Of a stretch of 64,000 bases of DNA, positions 16,019 through 46,292 are shown piece by piece; position 1 is the stretch's first letter; every line of letters begins with the position of its first letter. The notes beneath the pieces are model-generated. The model was not told the DNA's origin and did not search any database. It saw nothing but the letters and a program-made list of their open reading frames with translations. Source of the stretch: a virus. Its lineage: Duplodnaviria; Caudoviricetes. The DNA is taken from IMG/VR virus record IMGVR_UViG_3300033273_000282, positions 64,001 through 128,000 of that record; one strand, written 5' to 3'. Both the position numbers and the translations under genes were made by a program.

Positions 16019-17016
16019 TGGCACATAATGATCTCCATGCTAAGACCGAGGCGAGAGCCAAAGCAGCACAAACTCCAAGACCAGACACTTCGGTGGTTGA
16101 TCTTCAGATGGGTGGGGGTACAGAAACTCCCAATACCAATCCACAATCAATCACAGAGTATCCCAAGAACTTTGTAAAGACCACATCTGCTGGTCATGTC
16201 TTGGAACTGAACAACTCTGGCGGTGGTGAGCGAGTACGCTTTATCAATGGTGCTACTGGCTCTTTCTTTGACATGGGTCATGATGGTAAAACGTTTATTC
16301 AATCTAAGAATGAACTACATCTTAAGTCGGATCATTCCACAACTATCACTGTTGGGAAGGATCTCAAGAAAGACAAACTTATTATCAAGGTTGTAGGTGA
16401 TGCTCACCTCATGGTTGAGGGTGACCTACATACTGAGGTCAATGGAAACAAGTATGACCACATCTCTGGTGAGTGGAGAGTAGAATCGAAAGGCTCTACG
16501 TTCATTTCATCTAGAGAGAACATTGGTGTTGAGGCGGATAGCGAACTCCGTGTCATCGCTAATGAAGTTAACCAGAAAATGACATTCGCCAAAGTCGATA
16601 TGAAGGCTGGCGGACAGGTTGTCGAAGAAATTAACGGCAACCGTGTGATTAGAATGAGTAAAGAAGGTGGTACCTTTGCTATCGAGAGCGAGGGTGACCT
16701 TCGATTTAATGTCAAGGGTTGTCGTTACGACAAGATTGGAAGAAATTACTTTACTGAAGTTCAGGGCAAAATCAAGATCAATGCGATTGGAGATGATGTC
16801 GATTGTATCGAAGGTGGTGCCCCTCCTGGAATGGATGTTGAAAAACCAGAAGATTCTCCCTATGGCAATCCAACTGGTTGGGAACTAACAACAGGTGAAA
16901 CTTCAGTACGCATTACAGCCGAAGACTTCTACATGGCTGCGAATGGATCAGCCAAGATGGAAGCAGGCGGTGACGAGTTTAAGATTGTCTGCGACAACGG
17001 TATCTACCTTAATTGA
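16018..17016 (+). CDS. gp5 C-terminal beta-helix spike protein encoded as a separate gene
   Basis: YPKNFVKTTSAGHVLELNNSGGGERVRFI...GSFFDMGHDG resembles the start of the T4 gp5 C-terminal region; V.GD.H..V.G repeats; ends IYLN. Confidence 0.75.
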   Translation: MAHNDLHAKTEARAKAAQTPRPDTSVVDLQMGGGTETPNTNPQSITEYPKNFVKTTSAGHVLELNNSGGGERVRFINGATGSFFDMGHDGKTFIQSKNELHLKSDHSTTITVGKDLKKDKLIIKVVGDAHLMVEGDLHTEVNGNKYDHISGEWRVESKGSTFISSRENIGVEADSELRVIANEVNQKMTFAKVDMKAGGQVVEEINGNRVIRMSKEGGTFAIESEGDLRFNVKGCRYDKIGRNYFTEVQGKIKINAIGDDVDCIEGGAPPGMDVEKPEDSPYGNPTGWELTTGETSVRITAEDFYMAANGSAKMEAGGDEFKIVCDNGIYLN

Positions 17017-17041
17017 CATTCACCCGTGAATGTTGTATAGT
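17013..17041 (+). promoter_or_regulatory. Sigma70-type (early) promoter
   Basis: TTGACA(17013-18)-17-TATAGT(17036-41). Confidence 0.8.
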
Positions 17042-17055
17042 AAAAAGCGTAACTA

Positions 17056-17346
17056 ATGTACGGTATGCCTTTAACATTACATCAGGCACACGTTCTTTCT
17101 TCATTCATCGAAGAGAAGTGTGATGAGTACGTGGAGGAACTGATGAAAGAAAAGTTTTCATCACCCCACGCAGACCAAACCCAAGCAGGGGCTTACTTCA
17201 TGACCACAAGGAGGGCGCTCTTGGCAACGAAGGAATACGCCGACAAGGTGATCCAACATGCCAAACTCCAAAGTGGCACAGCCACTAACGCAGGTTTCAT
17301 GTGGGTGCCCTATGATGTGGGGGAAGACAACGCCGAATCATCATGA
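17056..17346 (+). CDS. Hypothetical protein
   Basis: 96-aa ORF directly downstream of the early promoter; phage-like codon usage. Confidence 0.6.
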   Translation: MYGMPLTLHQAHVLSSFIEEKCDEYVEELMKEKFSSPHADQTQAGAYFMTTRRALLATKEYADKVIQHAKLQSGTATNAGFMWVPYDVGEDNAESS

Positions 17347-17522
17347 CGAAAGAAACCTGCCTCTCCAAGTGTGTCGTGAACATCCCCACCCGCACTTTCA
17401 CTCTGTTCTCTGATGATGCCCAAGTCAAGGAGCTGGTGTGTGACTCCTCTGAGCAGTTTGAGCGTGTGCTCGATGTAGTCCGTTCCTCTTGTAACCACGA
17501 CGAAGTTCAATACATTTACTGA
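17343..17522 (+). CDS. Small conserved cyanophage hypothetical protein
   Basis: [59 protein letters not shown]; ATGA overlap with the previous gene. Confidence 0.65.
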
Positions 17523-17524
17523 TT

Positions 17525-18025
17525 ATGTCACAAGTAGTTGCCCTTGCGGAGATCCGTGAGGTTCTGAAGAACTCGAAGCGGGTCACCGATAAGGTACTGC
17601 TTCAAGTAGCCACCATTGCTATCAAAGAAACCCTAGGTGATCGTCTGACCGCAGAGATCACCATGGAGTCCAAGTTCGTAGACGATCTGGAAGCAGACTC
17701 TCTTGACCTTGTGGAACTGGTTATGTTCCTTGAGGAAGCCTTTGGTATCGAGATTCCTGATGAGTATTCGATGGAGATTGTCACCGTTGGTGATGCTATC
17801 AAAGTCATCAAGGAATGTAAGAGGAACAAAGGCAAGAAGCGTAAGATCGACAAGTCTAAGTATCTTAAGAAGCCTAACCCAGAAGGTCCTATTGGACAGA
17901 CTCCCAAGCAGTTCCGTGGTGACGCTACTGCCAAGAAAACCCAAGAAATCGCAGATGAAATCGAAAAGTTTTTATCAGAACCTGACCCTTACGAAGGTGG
18001 AGACGACTCCAAAGCTGGTGGATGA
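17525..18025 (+). CDS. acpP: Acyl carrier protein with N- and C-terminal extensions
   Basis: [36 protein letters not shown]...TVGDAI; intact DSL phosphopantetheine-attachment serine. Confidence 0.92.
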
Positions 18026-18185
18026 ATCCAATCAAGCTTTGTATCGTGCTACAATGAACGTACCTAACGCTGCTGCTCATTGTGGCATGACAAAGCGTGA
18101 GATGAAGATGACGTTTAGAGAGTTTCTCAAGCACCATCCACCAGACTATAAGAACATGGAACAGTTGGAATTGGTAATGAAATGA
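18018..18185 (+). CDS. Small conserved cyanophage hypothetical protein
   Basis: GTG start; [26 protein letters not shown]. Confidence 0.6.
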
Positions 18186-18919
18186 AGACTAAGAAGGTAT
18201 ATTATAACTATGTCCTGGCAGGGTCTGAGGAGTCTTTCCTCGACCCTAAGGAGATTGACTTCTTCGCAGAAGATTACTTTGAGCCTCCTAGTCCTGCTCT
18301 CAAAGGATATGACATGGGGTATCGCCATGCTAAATGTCCAGCATGGAAAGAGTATTATAAGAATACCTTCGCGCTTCATCAAACTTTTCCTTTAGGTATA
18401 AAATATAGATCTGCCGATAAATATCTTGAGTCTAACTTATCCCAAGACTGTTTCGACCAATACTTTATGTTGGGCGATGGTTGGCTCGACGGGGAACACC
18501 CCGAGATACAATTCAAACAAGGTTATTGTTTCTGGACAGAAGATAAGGATGTATGGATTGAACAGTTCCAACACCCTGAAATGACTAGACTCGGATTAGA
18601 CGTTGTATGTGGTACATTTCCTATTTCAGTATGGCAACGTCCGATCAACCTTGGATTCAAAATCACAAAGTATGACCAAAACATCTGGCTCCCAAAAGGA
18701 GCGCCTCTCTGCTATGTACGCTTTAGTTCAGCAAGAACTAGAGATGTCAAAATCATCCTTGAAAAACGACCAGTCCCTGAAAGAGTGGCTAAGCGACAGC
18801 TACAGGATCTCTGGCTCAAGGACTGGCACAACAACTACTCATGGGACTTAATTAAGCAGAGACTTAAAAAAGAGGAGGAGAGCAGCAAGTGCCCCTTCTC
18901 ATCACTTTGGAGAAAGTAA
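18182..18919 (+). CDS. Conserved cyanophage hypothetical protein (beta-rich)
   Basis: 245 aa; KCPAWKEYYKNTF, GTFPISVWQRPINLGF, GAPLCYVRF. Confidence 0.7.
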   Translation: MKTKKVYYNYVLAGSEESFLDPKEIDFFAEDYFEPPSPALKGYDMGYRHAKCPAWKEYYKNTFALHQTFPLGIKYRSADKYLESNLSQDCFDQYFMLGDGWLDGEHPEIQFKQGYCFWTEDKDVWIEQFQHPEMTRLGLDVVCGTFPISVWQRPINLGFKITKYDQNIWLPKGAPLCYVRFSSARTRDVKIILEKRPVPERVAKRQLQDLWLKDWHNNYSWDLIKQRLKKEEESSKCPFSSLWRK

Positions 18920-19191: not shown

Positions 19192-19337
19192 AAGCCACAC
19201 TAACTGTTGATGACGATGGTATCCTGACATTTCCCCCTGAGATGCTCGAAGAGCTTGGGTGGAAAGAGGGTGATATGCTAGAGTGGATTGACAACAACGA
19301 TGGTTCTTTCACACTGAAGAAGCATGAAAGAGTTTGA
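19188..19337 (+). CDS. AbrB/MazE/SpoVT-like small DNA-binding protein
   Basis: MKATLTVDDDGILTFPPEMLEELGWKEGDMLEWIDNNDGSFTLKK matches the swapped-hairpin pattern. Confidence 0.65.
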   Translation: MKATLTVDDDGILTFPPEMLEELGWKEGDMLEWIDNNDGSFTLKKHERV

Positions 19338-19785
19338 TTATGACCTCGACTATAAGTCACTTGACTTTACAAATCCAGAAACTCGCAAACTTTATCGTAT
19401 TGGAAGGGGAGAGCAAGGAGTTCTACTGGTACGCCCTTATACAGACGACATTTGTACTCACTGGAGGTTTGTAGATGAGGTTACGGCTCACAAATCTGCT
19501 AATAAAATATACTCCATGTTCTGTGACTACAAGTCCAGACAAGATTTCATTGGCATGGACATGGCTAGGAAGTTCCTTGAAATGGGATTTACTCGCGCCC
19601 GACGATATGCTAATCATAGTTCGGGGAAAAAGTATGACTCCAAGGGTAATATCCGTCCCCAAGAGTCAGACTGGGCAACAAGTGAAAAGGCTAAATCCGC
19701 CAAAGTCTTTAAGCAAAAGAGAGACTTGGCAGCTAAAGATCCGATTTATTTGGAGATGAGACAAAAGTGGCGCAAAGCAGAGTGA
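19324..19785 (+). CDS. DUF4385-family protein
   Basis: YRIGRGEQGVLLVRPY..DIC.HWRF, DFIGMDMARKFLEMGFTRARRYANH.SGKKY. Confidence 0.8.
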   Translation: MKEFDYDLDYKSLDFTNPETRKLYRIGRGEQGVLLVRPYTDDICTHWRFVDEVTAHKSANKIYSMFCDYKSRQDFIGMDMARKFLEMGFTRARRYANHSSGKKYDSKGNIRPQESDWATSEKAKSAKVFKQKRDLAAKDPIYLEMRQKWRKAE

Positions 19786-20345
19786 CAGTGGTTAAGCAAC
19801 TCCCCGATGAGTTGTTTTCGGAATTGAAAGAGACATGTGCTAAGCGTCGCTTAGATGAAGAGTGGAACTTGGCTGACCGTTTGGTTGGTGCTATGCTTCA
19901 GCAGTCTAGTCTTGAGGTGTCGTCAGCACTTCAAGACTGGATTGTTGACCAAACGTCAAATCTATGGTACGATATTAAGGCAACGTGTCCATGGAACCCA
20001 AATTATTTTTTCCGAGATTATTTGAGACTCAGGGATTTGTGGGTGAACTACCAACGACCTGGAGAGTTTAACCCAGTACACTGTCACAATGGTGTTGTAA
20101 GTTTTGTCATCTTTGTAGACATTCCTTACGGTGCTAGCGAACGTCAGTATCATCGGGCAAGCGGCAACTTCCAACTGGAAGATCAGATACTCGATGTAGA
20201 TGCTAAATGGAATGGAACACTACTCATGTTCCCTTCTTACACTCAGCACGCAGTATATCCTTATCAATCCACCGATAAAGAACGCATTACTGTTGCTGGT
20301 AATATCTATTGGAATGTCGATGAAGTGGAGGATCAATGGTGGTAA
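19782..20345 (+). CDS. 2OG-Fe(II) oxygenase-like protein
   Basis: WVNYQRPGEFNPVHCH, SFVIFVDIP, LMFPSYTQHAVYP, RITVAGNI. Confidence 0.8.
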   Translation: MTVVKQLPDELFSELKETCAKRRLDEEWNLADRLVGAMLQQSSLEVSSALQDWIVDQTSNLWYDIKATCPWNPNYFFRDYLRLRDLWVNYQRPGEFNPVHCHNGVVSFVIFVDIPYGASERQYHRASGNFQLEDQILDVDAKWNGTLLMFPSYTQHAVYPYQSTDKERITVAGNIYWNVDEVEDQWW

Positions 20346-21392: not shown

Positions 21393-21571
21393 TGGGTAAG
21401 TACGAAGATCTGGACCAGTATGAGCTAGCCATCGTTCACTTTGGAAACCGAGTAGAAGTTATCTGTGCCATGGAAATGGCAGGCAAGTTGGAATTTAATT
21501 CTGCGTTTGACTTAATTAAGGCAGAATATAAAGAACTGAAGAAAATCAGAAAAAAGTATGAATCTGATTAA
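21392..21571 (+). CDS. Small hypothetical protein
   Basis: MGKYEDLDQYELAIVHFGNRVEVICAMEMAGKL...AFDLIKAEYKELKKIRKK; TAATG overlap with the previous gene. Confidence 0.6.
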   Translation: MGKYEDLDQYELAIVHFGNRVEVICAMEMAGKLEFNSAFDLIKAEYKELKKIRKKYESD

Positions 21572-22136
21572 CTTATTCCCCACACCAATAATCCATACTG
21601 AAATTGCTCCCAGGGAAAAGTTGCTCTGGTTTGCCCGCGAGTATTCCAAGGAAGGTGCCCACGATCCTAACTCTAGCAGCGCAGGATGGCACTCACAATA
21701 TGATCTCCATCTTAAGCCAGAGTTTGGTGTATTTTGGGATGATATTTGGTATGAGATTACACACGCTGCCTATCATTTGGTAAGCGATGAGCATGAGATT
21801 GTTCCTGCTTCAATGTGGTTGAATAAGAATGATCCTGGGGATTATAATGTATCCCACAAGCATTATAAAGTAGATCTATCTGGTGTATTGTGGCTTCAAA
21901 CACCACCAAAGTCAGGTAGAATTGTTTTTGAAAATCATAACGACATTACTCGTTACAACCTAATTGATAAATCTGATAGGGATTATCAAAACGCAGCATC
22001 ATTTCACCATACCGTATGGTTTGAACCAGTAGAGTGGAACATGATAATTTTTCCTGCTGATCTGCGTCACAGTGTTGAGCGTAACATGTCAAATGAATCT
22101 AGACTATCTCTTGGATTTAACCTGAACGTTATATGA
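21558..22136 (+). CDS. 2OG-Fe(II) oxygenase (TIGR02466-like)
   Basis: LFPTPI, MWLNKNDPGDYNVSHKH, LSGVLWLQTP..SGRIVF, IIFPADLRHSV..N.S...RLSLGFN. Confidence 0.85.
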   Translation: MNLINLFPTPIIHTEIAPREKLLWFAREYSKEGAHDPNSSSAGWHSQYDLHLKPEFGVFWDDIWYEITHAAYHLVSDEHEIVPASMWLNKNDPGDYNVSHKHYKVDLSGVLWLQTPPKSGRIVFENHNDITRYNLIDKSDRDYQNAASFHHTVWFEPVEWNMIIFPADLRHSVERNMSNESRLSLGFNLNVI

Positions 22137-22327
22137 AGCCAGATATTCAACAATACTTCTCCTATCAATATGACCCCTGTGGTCATTTACATGTTAGAAT
22201 ACATAAAGACTTTATTGATGAACTTGGTTGGTCAAATAAAGACTTAGAGTTATCCTTCGGTGGTATTCGTAAGATGAACGACTGGGGGAGTGATGCTACC
22301 CTAACCTTACACAAGAAAAATGCTTGA
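22133..22327 (+). CDS. Small AbrB-like/hypothetical protein
   Basis: VRIHKDFIDELGWSNKDLEL. Confidence 0.45.
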   Translation: MKPDIQQYFSYQYDPCGHLHVRIHKDFIDELGWSNKDLELSFGGIRKMNDWGSDATLTLHKKNA

Positions 22328-22754
22328 CGAGTTTATAGAGTGGTTTGAAGGTAACTACAACAACTGGAAGCAAGCGTCCAGTTGGCCGAGTCACTATGCT
22401 CACATTTTACTCAAACATGAACGAATTGATGATAATACGTTCTATTGTGAGCAAAAGTTCAAACACGACGGGCAAATCTACCGTAAGAAAGAGATCAAAC
22501 TAGAGTGGGTGGGTGATGAGATCATTGCCTGCAACCCAGTTTGTGACATTCATTTTCACAGAGTTCCTTCACCTGAAGGATGGGCATATGTTGGTAGAAA
22601 TATCAAGAGTCCATTTGTGAATGGTGGGTATCTTCGCAGTGAAGCCATCCTCCAATACAACAAATATATTGTTATTGACAGGGGTTACGATGAGAAGGGA
22701 AAGCAGGTATGGGGAAGTGAATATGGTCCATTCGTCTTTGATAAAAAGGTATAA
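22320..22754 (+). CDS. cpeT: CpeT/CpcT-like phycobilin lyase
   Basis: F.GNYNNWKQA.S.P..YAHI.L.H, Y.V.DRGYD..GKQVWGS..GPF.FDK. Confidence 0.88.
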   Translation: MLDEFIEWFEGNYNNWKQASSWPSHYAHILLKHERIDDNTFYCEQKFKHDGQIYRKKEIKLEWVGDEIIACNPVCDIHFHRVPSPEGWAYVGRNIKSPFVNGGYLRSEAILQYNKYIVIDRGYDEKGKQVWGSEYGPFVFDKKV

Positions 22755-36487: not shown

Positions 36488-37738
36488 ATGTTCACCCTCC
36501 GTCCTCACCAACAGCGTACCGTCAATGCTCTCGCTGCTGCTGACCGTGGCACTGTCTACATCCCCACTGGTGGCGGCAAGACTCTCTGTATCATGGAAGA
36601 CCTCGCTCGCTTCCTCAGCAGCGCCCAGGGACCCTCTGTGACCGTTGTGGTTGCCCCGCGCATCATGCTGGCTCTTCAGCTGTGTGAAGAGTTCCGTGAG
36701 CATCCTGGTGTGATGCGTTCTGACGTGTTCATGGGGCATGTTCACAGCGGCGAGACTCCCCATTTCCGTACAACTAACAGCGACAAGATCGGTCTGTTTG
36801 TTGATATGTGTAAGTCTGCTCAGGCTCACGCTATCATCTTCACCACCTACAACTCTCTGAACAAGATTGTTGACGCTGGTATTCAGATCGACAATCTGTA
36901 TTGTGATGAGGCACACAACAGCGTACAGCGTAACTTCTTCCCTGTTGTTGCTCTCGCTGCTATAGACGCTGCTCGCGCATATTTCTTCACTGCGACTCCT
37001 AAGTATGCTAAGAATGGCAAGCGTGGCATGAACAATGGTCAGATCTACGGCACCAATCTTATCACTGTTGCTGCTCAAGAGTTGATTGAGTGTGGTAGCA
37101 TTGTTGCTCCCACCATCATTACTCACAAGACTGAGGCAATTCGCAACAAAGAGACGATTGCTTTCGTCGATGCTGACACTGTGACTGGTGTGATTGACAC
37201 TCTCGATGAGGATCAAGCCACCAAAGTTCTGGTTGCTGCTCCTTCTGCGCGGAACATCATGAACATGTTTGTCAAGACTGGTCTCAAGCAAGATCTTATT
37301 GAGCGTGGTTATTCTTGGATGATGATTACATCCAAGCATGGCGCAATCATTGACGGTAAGAAGGTCACTCGTGACCAATTCTTTGACACTCTCCACGCTT
37401 GGGGACTCGATGAGGACAAGAAGTTTGTTCTCTTCCACTATTCTATTCTCTCTGAAGGTATCAACGTGCCTGGTCTTACGCACGTTATTCTCCTTCGCCA
37501 GTTGCCAATTATCGAGATGGCGCAGACTATTGGTCGTGTGATTCGTCTTGATCGTGATGACGCGCAAGCAATCTCTAGTGGTGCGCTCACCCCTGGTAAC
37601 TGGGCTAACTATAAGAAAGGCACTGGCTTTGTTACTGTTCCTATCTACAGCAACCACGGTGCTCAGATTGCTTCACGTCTACAGCGTGTGGTAGATTGTA
37701 TCTTCACTAAGGGTAACCCTGCTGCGGCATGGGTCTGA
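36488..37738 (+). CDS. Superfamily 2 DEAH-box helicase (ResIII-like)
   Basis: PTGGGKT (Walker A), CDEAH, FFTATP, ILSEGINVPGL, QTIGRVIR. Confidence 0.9.
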   Translation: MFTLRPHQQRTVNALAAADRGTVYIPTGGGKTLCIMEDLARFLSSAQGPSVTVVVAPRIMLALQLCEEFREHPGVMRSDVFMGHVHSGETPHFRTTNSDKIGLFVDMCKSAQAHAIIFTTYNSLNKIVDAGIQIDNLYCDEAHNSVQRNFFPVVALAAIDAARAYFFTATPKYAKNGKRGMNNGQIYGTNLITVAAQELIECGSIVAPTIITHKTEAIRNKETIAFVDADTVTGVIDTLDEDQATKVLVAAPSARNIMNMFVKTGLKQDLIERGYSWMMITSKHGAIIDGKKVTRDQFFDTLHAWGLDEDKKFVLFHYSILSEGINVPGLTHVILLRQLPIIEMAQTIGRVIRLDRDDAQAISSGALTPGNWANYKKGTGFVTVPIYSNHGAQIASRLQRVVDCIFTKGNPAAAWV

Positions 37739-37771: not shown

Positions 37772-38380
37772 GTGATTAACACGATGTTCTCTATACCTCT
37801 GGTGAGGTACAGTTTGAGTGATTGGAGCAGCAAAAAGCAGTTCCTAATGTCTACTTTGGAATCTAGGCAGCTCACGATGGGTAGCGAGAGGGTATGGTCA
37901 GACTACGCGGAGAAAAGCTCAGAAAATCTATTGTTGAGCACTATCACAGGTACATTGCGCGATGAGTTAGATCAATTCGCGCAAGACTTCAGGTGTGATC
38001 CATCAATAGTGCATGCTTGGTTCGAGAAAGCATATCAAACCAACCATCACCCAGTACATAATCATGGGCATGGTGGTTGGAGTGCGGTATTGTACCTAGA
38101 TTACGATCCTGATGAGCACACACCCACCATATTTGTCAGTCCGTTTGATCATTTCATCACAGGTGAGCAGTTGACATATTTTCCCGACGTGAAAGAAGGG
38201 GATCTTATTCTATTTCCTAGTTTCCTCCACCATTACACACAGCCAAATGAGAGTCAGATCCCTCGTGCTGTGTTGTCATTCAACCTGACAGTGGATGAGC
38301 ACAATACACCATTGGCATGGGAGAGCAAGGTGGACAGTCAGAGAGCTGGACTACCACGCGACCTTTTGCCCTACTGGTGA
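37772..38380 (+). CDS. 2OG-Fe(II) oxygenase (TIGR02466-like)
   Basis: MFSIPL, W......HPVHNH...WSAVLYLDY, EGDLILFPSFLHH, RAVLSFNL. Confidence 0.85.
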   Translation: MINTMFSIPLVRYSLSDWSSKKQFLMSTLESRQLTMGSERVWSDYAEKSSENLLLSTITGTLRDELDQFAQDFRCDPSIVHAWFEKAYQTNHHPVHNHGHGGWSAVLYLDYDPDEHTPTIFVSPFDHFITGEQLTYFPDVKEGDLILFPSFLHHYTQPNESQIPRAVLSFNLTVDEHNTPLAWESKVDSQRAGLPRDLLPYW

Positions 38381-45469: not shown

Positions 45470-45931
45470 ATGCTTTTTCATAGGATCCCTATTTTCAAAA
45501 TTTTTTCCGAGAAAAAATTCCGAGTATACCTTTTTGATAACCCCAAGGAGAGTCATTCCGAGATTATCCGACTGTGTATCGCAGACTGGCTGGATGGTCG
45601 GTTAGACTGTTTTGCGCCCGCCCATGTCCATTGGAGTAAGTCCGACACAGGCACATGGCTTGCTGTTGCGGTGAGTTCCAAGCGTATTGGGGTAGACATT
45701 GAAACAATGCGAGAGCGCAACTATGAAAAAATTTCAAAAAGATTCTTTGACCCATCCGAGGTTACCGACGATATAGAAAAGTTCTACATAGAATGGGTAA
45801 GGAAAGAAGCGTACTGGAAGAAAGCTAAAAAAGGTATCGGAGGGCGCTTAGGGGTTGCTATTCCAAAAGGTCACGGTATAATTACATTAGAGGGATTACC
45901 CGACAACCTTGCTGGAGCAGTTTCACTATGA
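45470..45931 (+). CDS. 4'-phosphopantetheinyl transferase (Sfp/EntD-type)
   Basis: HWSKSDT (SxSH-like), IGVDIE, RFF...E, FY..WVRKEAYWK..K.GIG signature; start uncertain. Confidence 0.85.
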   Translation: MLFHRIPIFKIFSEKKFRVYLFDNPKESHSEIIRLCIADWLDGRLDCFAPAHVHWSKSDTGTWLAVAVSSKRIGVDIETMRERNYEKISKRFFDPSEVTDDIEKFYIEWVRKEAYWKKAKKGIGGRLGVAIPKGHGIITLEGLPDNLAGAVSL

Positions 45932-46128
45932 TCAACCTGGACGACCGCTTTCACTCATACCTCGCAGGTACAAAGCAGTTCTGTATCGACGGTATATGCG
46001 AGAGAGTGAGAACGTACGGCTTCCATTCTTCTGATGATCAAAACGTAGACGGCTTTTATGTTGTCACTGACAATCACAAGCTGATTTACAATCTACAAGA
46101 GCAGTGTATTTCCTGTGAGACTCTATGA
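45928..46128 (+). CDS. Small conserved hypothetical protein
   Basis: MINLDDRFHSYL..K.F.IDG..ERV..YG. Confidence 0.6.
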   Translation: MINLDDRFHSYLAGTKQFCIDGICERVRTYGFHSSDDQNVDGFYVVTDNHKLIYNLQEQCISCETL

Positions 46129-46292
46129 ATGAACTCGAAATGATTCTTCTACTAAAGAGTCAGGTAGAAGCACTTGAAAAGCGTTTGAATGATATGACAC
46201 TCCTCATGAAGCGCCCAGGCTCAGAGGAATATGAAAAACTCGTTGATGTCGTTTGTGACCATGAAAATCGGTTAAATAAACTTGAGGCTTAA
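46125..46292 (+). CDS. Small coiled-coil hypothetical protein
   Basis: LKSQVEALEKRL..RPGSEEYEKLVDVVCDHENRLNKLE. Confidence 0.55.
   Translation: MNELEMILLLKSQVEALEKRLNDMTLLMKRPGSEEYEKLVDVVCDHENRLNKLEA
46273..46278 (+). promoter_or_regulatory. Late promoter core TAAATA
   Basis: About 48 nt upstream of the structural gene at 46326. Confidence 0.5.

Follow-up and report, generated by a model that had tools for sequence, protein, structure and literature searches.

An extended acyl carrier protein and an accessory, trimmed Sfp-type phosphopantetheinyl transferase gene in a marine cyanophage lineage

The closest described relatives of the gene pair analyzed here are found in Prochlorococcus phages. 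For P-HM1 and P-HM2, the genome paper of Sullivan et al. 2010 mentions "an acyl carrier protein and its synthetase" (PMC3037559), and 'acyl carrier protein ACP' and '4'-P-pantetheinyl transferase' are the GenBank annotations in both phages. In P-HM1, P-HM2 and MED4-213 the corresponding families are T4-GC457 for the acyl carrier protein (ACP) and T4-GC500 for 'ACPS', here called the phosphopantetheinyl transferase (PPTase). A 2023 review table places the ACP in 2/153 cyanophages. Our search of the literature on cyanophages, ACP and PPTase returned nothing beyond the 2010 genome paper and this review table, and no functional study of a phage ACP or PPTase was found. Among cellular proteins, the carriers most useful for comparison are AcpP of bacterial type II fatty-acid synthesis (FAS II) and mycobacterial AcpM; on the side of the activating enzyme they are Bacillus subtilis Sfp and the cyanobacterial Sfp-type PPTases SPPT and APPT, which belong to the W/KEA type and of which the one in Synechocystis resisted deletion (PMC5605751).

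We examined 64,000 nucleotides of viral DNA (the window), corresponding to positions 64001-128000 of record G000 (IMGVR_UViG_3300033273_000282; 200,309 bases, rated 100% complete). The window contains one gene of each kind ( Table 1 ), 27.9 kb apart from start to start, in accord with the 28 kb given in the original prediction. That prediction had also presented the pair as a candidate for an undescribed system, a claim that falls before the 2010 listing and the GenBank annotations of P-HM1 and P-HM2: the window pair is a diverged addition to a gene pair annotated since 2010. By tblastn, the long ACP was found in exactly 3 of 50,697 phage records, those of P-HM1, P-HM2 and MED4-213, and the PPTase clade in exactly the same three; a nucleotide-level search of the phage collection with the window gave no match. 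Relative to these three phages, the window ACP is 51-56% identical and the PPTase 43-45%. What is new here is that the carrier is universal in its lineage, that the transferase is accessory, lineage-structured and of a trimmed Sfp type, and that the phages have no recognizable partner for the carrier.

Table 1. Features of the carrier and transferase loci, with positions counted from the first base of the window.
Feature	Coordinates	Strand	Details
Sigma-70-type promoter-like site, TTGACA-17-TATAGT	17013..17041	+	11/12 match; overlaps gp5b stop codon
Small ORF c3, first operon gene	17056..17346	+	96 aa; upstream of ACP in 50/64 viral-contig loci
DUF7294 protein	17343..17522	+	59 aa; PF23966 at E 9e-15
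Extended AcpP-type acyl carrier protein (ACP)	17525..18025	+	166 aa; PF00550, phrog_27464
c11, DUF6065-like	18182..18919	+	245 aa; commonest gene directly after ACP, 42/64 loci
2OG-Fe(II) oxygenase, ACP island	19767..20345	+	PF13759 at E 7e-13
Second 2OG-Fe(II) oxygenase, ACP island	21558..22136	+	PF13759 at E 1.4e-18; cluster cl28
CpeT-family protein, closes island before fibre genes	22320..22754	+	PF06206 at E 5e-17
Miniature Sfp-type (W/KEA) 4'-phosphopantetheinyl transferase (PPTase), predicted	45470..45931	+	153 aa; PF01648, phrog_23098
Small ORF c10, marker for PPTase slot	46125..46292	+	55 aa; in 50/74 PPTase loci

The surroundings of both genes are shared with P-HM1, P-HM2 and MED4-213. 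At the first site the common order is gp5 - small ORFs - DUF7294 - ACP - ... - cpeT - fibres, at the second it is PPTase - small ORFs - PAAR - gp25 - gp6, and the spacing between ACP and PPTase is 22-28 kb in the window and in the P-HM-type phages alike. The two sides differ in GC content (44.6% for the window's phage vs 38.1% on the P-HM side), in the sigma-70 promoter ahead of the operon, which the P-HM branch lacks, and in the extra genes of the window's island (c11, DUF4385 and two oxygenases); the DUF4385 protein is encoded at 19324-19785. The record from which the window comes is probably a chimeric, mis-joined or incomplete assembly. Searches of G000 for gp43, gp41, uvsX, nrdA/B, gp44/45, gp61 and psbA found none of this replication module, while a related genome, G006 (189 kb, rated 100% complete), has all of them; gp6/gp7/gp8 and neck genes occur a second time, as a more diverged set, in the first ~58 kb of G000, and the GC content of its first 64 kb is 41.1%, vs 44.6-45.1%. 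Both the ACP and the PPTase gene nevertheless lie in one block of G000 that is syntenic with P-HM2. Because the replication module is missing from the record, a partner gene of the window's phage could lie in DNA outside it.

The identities of the two genes are secure. The ACP reading frame matches PF00550 (PP-binding) in the Pfam scan at 29 bits, above the cut-off of 20.8, and phrog_27464 over its full length (E 7.6e-45); this family and phrog_23098, to which the PPTase belongs, are both labelled 'unknown function'. When the ACP family profile was compared with solved proteins, type II FAS ACPs came at the top (E 1e-20 to 1e-17 over a core of ~60 residues, as for E. coli 1ACP and H. pylori 8JFI), with mitochondrial ACPs and AcpM ranked lower. 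The protein thus belongs with the AcpP-type carriers and not with the peptidyl or aryl ones. The core of the window ACP (residues 36-98), which aligns to the solved ACPs, has a net charge of -13 and a pI of 4.05, and it shares with bacterial AcpP this acidic character, the DSL serine and the recognition motif of helix II. The intact DSL serine noticed in the original reading of the sequence is borne out: Ser59 is kept in 49/49 distinct viral-contig copies and the equivalent serine in 119/120 among the database homologues listed, and it is essentially invariant also in lineages without a PPTase. One ACP homologue, on contig IMGVR_UViG_3300006332_000635 (G016:C1:20643-21116), contains an in-frame TGA, which could be a sequencing error or mark a broken copy.

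The phage carrier is unlike bacterial AcpP in its length, which is about twice as great: 166 residues with conserved tails, vs about 75-90 for a typical ACP, the difference being an N-terminal extension of ~20 residues (~residues 1-20) and a C-terminal tail of ~68. In an alignment of 15 diverse family members, the AcpP-like core contains the invariant D58-S59-L60-D61, followed by the helix II motif VELVMFLEE, and the family profile retains the AcpP recognition sequence DSLDxVELVMxLEE; an IVTVGDA block is also invariant. The extra N-terminal segment is conserved, and the tail consists of a polybasic stretch (KNKGKKKK...), a PxPxxP motif and an acidic end, so that in the window ACP it runs from basic (residues 99-125, net charge +9) to acidic. 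A word-indexed search returned 1,442 homologues, nearly all of 141-190 residues and from marine data. An AcpP-like core with a C-terminal extension is also found in AcpM (1KLP), which aligns over profile positions 40-115, but the AcpM tail is unrelated in sequence to that of the phage protein, and AcpM serves a dedicated FAS II encoded beside it, of which there is none beside the phage ACP. The phage gene differs from bacterial AcpP in this respect as well: it is a solitary viral gene that has no fab genes in its vicinity.

The second gene encodes an enzyme for which the motifs, the family match and the best solved relative all agree with the original assignment as an Sfp-type PPTase. The reading frame matches PF01648 (ACPS) at 28.7 bits (cut-off 25) and phrog_23098 at E 1e-30, and it contains IGVDIE at residues 73-78 and WVRKEAYWK at residues 109-117, the latter conforming to WxxKEAxxK; the Mg-binding and catalytic residues D76, E78, K112, E113 and K117 are invariant in 8 family sequences. 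Among solved sequences, the PPTase family profile matched only Sfp (E 2.7e-8, Sfp residues 84-165), and no other PPTase, AcpS included, was matched at E<=1. The AlphaFold2 model (pLDDT 81, pTM 0.77) has its best fold match in the Sfp-CoA-PCP complex (4mrt; E 3e-6, TM 0.61), followed by human AASDHPPT, PcpS and PptT, all of group II, with RMSD values of 4-9 A to the group II enzymes. In the model, a beta-beta-alpha-beta-beta arrangement precedes the catalytic half, which predicts a two-lobed fold. We rejected an AcpS-type (group I) assignment: 72 residues precede GxDxE, AcpS gave no sequence match at E<=1, and AcpS folds were matched only at E 0.1-0.35 and TM 0.36-0.38.

B. subtilis Sfp is thus the best match of the phage enzyme in both sequence and fold, with GxDxE and W/KEA in common, and the W/KEA motif groups the phage enzyme with the cyanobacterial Sfp-type PPTases. 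The phage protein is much smaller than any of these, with 153 residues against about 224-240 for Sfp, SPPT and APPT; compared with characterized Sfp-type enzymes in general (about 220-240) it is ~70 residues shorter, and both of its lobes are trimmed by ~30 residues relative to Sfp. In the alignment, Sfp Ser89 pairs with an invariant S58 and the CoA-contacting His90 with an invariant D59, and the N-terminal half is unalignable to the region of Sfp that holds Lys28, Lys31 and Thr44, which we take to be CoA-binding residues. Because of the short chain, the change of His90 to Asp and the unalignable N-terminal half, activity of the enzyme is not assured. Profile, fold and motif evidence together support the designation 'Sfp-type', with the reduced architecture as a reservation, and sequence and model support the conclusion that this 153-residue protein is an Sfp-type, not an AcpS-type, PPTase. 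The clade is tight. When 1.84 billion representatives were searched exhaustively with the family profile, only 4 clusters came out below E 1e-30, after which the scores drop to those of generic PPTases (7,874 matches below E 1e-3). Short PPTases of 155-180 residues are also encoded in Bacillota genome bins.

We then asked how the two genes are distributed relative to each other. Profile-guided scans of IMG/VR yielded 133 ACP loci and 77 PPTase loci, and with positive controls working, both genes were found on G000, on G011 and in P-HM1. Direct co-occurrence on long viral contigs was mostly uninformative, because assemblies are commonly interrupted somewhere between the two genes, and a gene not seen would lie past the contig end. 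Many contigs start or stop within 1-2 kb on the upstream side of the PPTase, and contigs with both genes are very rare; the intervening 22-28 kb, with its giant fibre genes and variable small-gene array, seems to break assemblies. The complete genome G006 encodes an ACP (E 4e-45), but neither a PPTase of the window's clade nor a PF01648 match of any kind was found in it, and other small ORFs fill the syntenic PPTase slot; G007 shows the same pattern of ACP without PPTase. We then sampled each slot by a neighboring marker, gp5b for the ACP and the small ORF c10 for the PPTase, with the caveat that these markers may sample different breadths of phages. (PAAR was discarded as a marker for being too general, with 407 matches from unrelated phages.) The ACP was present in 62/62 gp5b-fetched loci with enough downstream sequence. 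The PPTase was present in 29/65 c10-fetched loci, ~200 nt upstream of c10, and absent from the other 36 despite 1.2-3 kb of upstream sequence. One contig, 3300020312_000068, contains both markers, with the ACP present and the PPTase absent.

The absences of the PPTase are not scattered. In a tree built from the 1.5 kb that follow the slot downstream, its presence requires only 2 changes vs 21 in shuffles, which indicates that PPTase presence is structured by lineage. The residue before the serine (ADSL or LDSL) showed no correlation with PPTase presence. The distribution is asymmetric: every phage in which the PPTase clade was found also has the ACP, while the ACP often occurs without the PPTase, so that the co-occurrence predicted for the pair holds in one direction only. 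The PPTase is nested inside the ACP-bearing lineage, and the ACP is independent of it. That the two-part system originally proposed is an obligate one is contradicted by these counts and by the complete genome without a PPTase; the same results indicate that the PPTase is a dispensable helper rather than one half of such a system. A functional link between the two is plausible, given the confinement of the PPTase clade to ACP-bearing phages and the co-timing of the two genes in P-HM2 described below.

The persistence of the ACP in lineages without a PPTase raises the question of whether it carries anything at all. The protein could be a mimic or decoy, whose recognition helix binds the ACP partners of the host and whose tails sequester, relocate or regulate them, altering host lipid or stress signalling with no product carried. 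The conserved recognition surface of helix II is consistent with this, as are the family-wide extra N-helix, polybasic stretch, PxPxxP motif and acidic end, which have no role in known FAS chemistry. However, the serine that would be modified is essentially invariant, and about 45% of lineages retain a dedicated PPTase, which was not found elsewhere. The near-invariant serine and the dedicated PPTase together indicate that the prosthetic group matters, and we consider a decoy unlikely.

The ACP belongs to a compact gene group. The original prediction of an operon under a strong sigma-70 promoter agrees with what we found: the promoter-like site is the best in its region, c3 and the DUF7294 gene overlap by 4 nt, and a spacer of 2 nt separates the latter from the ACP. 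A promoter-like site at the same offset, over the gp5b stop codon, is present in 20/47 distinct related loci; in these the -35 element TTGACA is invariant and the -10 element drifts (TATAGT, TACAAT, TATACT, TAGAAT, TATAAT). No such site was found in the AT-rich P-HM-like branch. The c3 product has no Pfam or PHROG match; a homologue is present in the ACP-only genome G006, and by position c3 corresponds to PHM2_027 (T4-GC456) of P-HM2, with no tblastn match to P-HM2 at E<=1e-4. Across 64 loci, the constant neighbors of the ACP are gp5a, gp5b, c3 and the DUF7294 gene upstream (the last of these immediately upstream in 47/64) and cpeT (46/64) and fibre genes downstream. The content between ACP and cpeT varies: it may be nothing, c36 (the PHM2_030 family), c11, or c11 with further oxygenases, among which cl28 recurs. 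Two other genes of the window lie outside this island, a third PF13759 2OG-Fe(II) oxygenase at 37772-38380 and, between the fibre genes and the small-gene array, a ResIII/DEAD-type helicase of 416 residues at 36488-37738, which is shared with G006 and not with P-HM2.

The island as a whole has gp5, a late baseplate-hub gene, on one side and the fibre genes on the other, and the PPTase sits just upstream of PAAR, gp25 and gp6. These positions might point to a further role, in virion construction, with the ACP acting as acyl donor to a baseplate, PAAR or fibre protein or as a component of the virion itself: in all 62 informative loci the ACP follows gp5b and precedes the fibre genes, and the PPTase adjoins structural genes on their upstream side. 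The timing of expression in P-HM2, taken from S2 Table of Thompson et al. 2016 (PMC5082946), does not fit this role. The ACP (PHM2_029), PHM2_030 and cpeT are classed as 'Mid (B)' in light, and the PPTase (PHM2_076) as 'Mid (B)' in light and dark, while the flanking baseplate and fibre genes are late (PMC5082946). The shared 'Mid (B)' class shows that the two genes are co-timed middle genes in small islands inside the structural region. In addition, neither is annotated as a virion protein in P-HM2 and no acyltransferase was found in PlsC-type searches of five phage records or in Pfam scans of 30 larger P-HM2 proteins, so that a role in virion construction appears very improbable.

What, then, might load or use the carrier? 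Each genome examined has exactly one PP-binding gene. The original prediction had recognized no ketosynthase, acyltransferase or adenylation enzyme, and this stood up to family searches. With positive controls working, no AMP-binding, ketoacyl synthase or PlsC-type acyltransferase gene was found in five records (G000, P-HM1, G006, G011 and G001), and Pfam scans of 30 larger P-HM2 proteins found no carrier-using enzyme; they returned oxygenases, a TauD-family dioxygenase, Asp/Asn beta-hydroxylase-like proteins, a glycine-cleavage P protein and several DUFs. A search by lineage profile was equally unproductive. It took those genes common to P-HM2 and the window's record whose T4-GC numbers fall in the range of the P-HM-only genes of Sullivan et al. 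2010, as judged from the numbering in GenBank notes, and almost every one of them is a baseplate gene, a fibre gene or a small ORF. The frequent downstream neighbor c11, whose connection to DUF6065 is an Atlas lead, is probably not the partner either. It has no Pfam match, and its AlphaFold2 model (pLDDT 82) gives weak but consistent matches to a dUTPase/dCTP deaminase-like fold, which is unlike ACP-using enzymes; it is unrelated to PHM2_030 (hhalign probability 0.3), and it was not found near the ACP in P-HM1 and P-HM2. The c11 model has a long C-terminal helix, and His49, Cys52 and Cys237-Pro238 are invariant.

The recurring oxygenases might point to another use of the carrier, in which the ACP would tether a substrate for phage 2OG-Fe(II) oxygenases or other tailoring enzymes, which would hydroxylate or halogenate it in the manner of SyrB2, SyrP and CytC3 to give a small molecule or modified building block. 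In P-HM2, PHM2_030 (L161:19368-19865), annotated 'hypothetical', shares 44 nt with the end of the ACP gene. It belongs to the same expression cluster as the ACP and has a borderline match to 2OG-FeII_Oxy_3 (E 1e-5, 26.8 bits vs a cut-off of 27); together with the two PF13759 oxygenases of the window's ACP island, and with the TauD-family dioxygenase and Asp/Asn beta-hydroxylase-like genes common to the ACP-bearing P-HM2 and G006, it favors tailoring. Nevertheless, an oxygenase beside the ACP is not a constant feature (many loci, that of P-HM1 included, read ACP-c11-cpeT or ACP-cpeT), ACP-bearing phages have several 2OG oxygenases per genome, and such oxygenases are common also in cyanophages without an ACP. 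Moreover, no adenylation or other loading enzyme was found in three complete or near-complete genomes, and the carrier core resembles FAS AcpP, not the peptidyl or aryl carrier proteins. We therefore regard tailoring on the carrier as improbable.

One larger P-HM2 protein may touch on carrier metabolism by a different route. PHM2_178 (L164:7660-10410) matches PF02347 at E 2e-166 and encodes the glycine-cleavage P protein in full length. The glycine-cleavage H protein, the partner of the P protein, needs lipoate, which is made from octanoyl-ACP. A link between the P protein of P-HM2 and the phage ACP is thus conceivable; G006, which has the ACP, has no glycine-cleavage P protein gene.

The explanation that we favor, with a probability of about 0.5, is that the ACP is converted to its holo form by the phage or host PPTase and is then loaded and used by host fatty-acid and lipid enzymes, the phage PPTase serving as a booster. 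Two considerations lead to it: the phages have no recognizable loading, condensing or acyl-transfer enzyme and the carrier has kept the AcpP recognition helix, which makes host enzymes the most likely users; and the PPTase is missing in more than half of the related phages, where a host Sfp-type enzyme would have to act. We infer that host enzymes load the carrier and that the phage PPTase, where present, acts on the phage ACP, and we suggest a reason for both. The ACP would be transcribed in mid-infection from a host-type promoter, and the PPTase, expressed alongside it in P-HM2, would move 4'-phosphopantetheine from CoA to Ser59. Apo-ACP is inhibitory in E. coli. As a booster, the phage enzyme may provide holo-carrier quickly and without a build-up of apo-carrier, and in lineages without it the host Sfp-type enzyme would install the prosthetic group. 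The holo-carrier could then be loaded or used by the host malonyl transacylase, type II fatty-acid synthase, acyl-ACP synthetase and acyl-ACP consumers, so that the acyl-ACP pool of the infected cell would be supplemented or redirected. The purposes put forward in the original prediction, diversion of acyl flux and membrane remodelling, are hypothetical.

Set against host use of the carrier is that the need of an infected cell for additional carrier is not obvious. The N-terminal extension and the basic, PxPxxP and acidic tail are likewise unneeded for ordinary FAS work, and they hint at a dedicated partner or location. It is possible, though we think it a long shot, that they make the protein a dedicated viral carrier with cargo beyond ordinary fatty-acid intermediates. 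Such a carrier would dock to one particular partner or surface, for which the thylakoid, the cell membrane, a phage 2OG oxygenase and some unrecognized enzyme are examples. If true, this would amount to a virus-specific carrier-protein pathway in one of the commonest phage groups of the ocean.

The uneven distribution of the PPTase is well suited to a comparison of phages with and without it on one host, and the enzyme itself, as an unusually small member of the Sfp type, may be a useful minimal scaffold, if active. For the phages, the central result is that a widespread lineage of marine cyanophages has the extended carrier as a fixed gene, with more than 1,400 homologues, 133 viral-contig loci and presence in every informative locus. 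The cargo of this carrier would tell whether these phages intervene in the lipid, lipoate or alkane metabolism of the host or run a carrier-based chemistry of their own.
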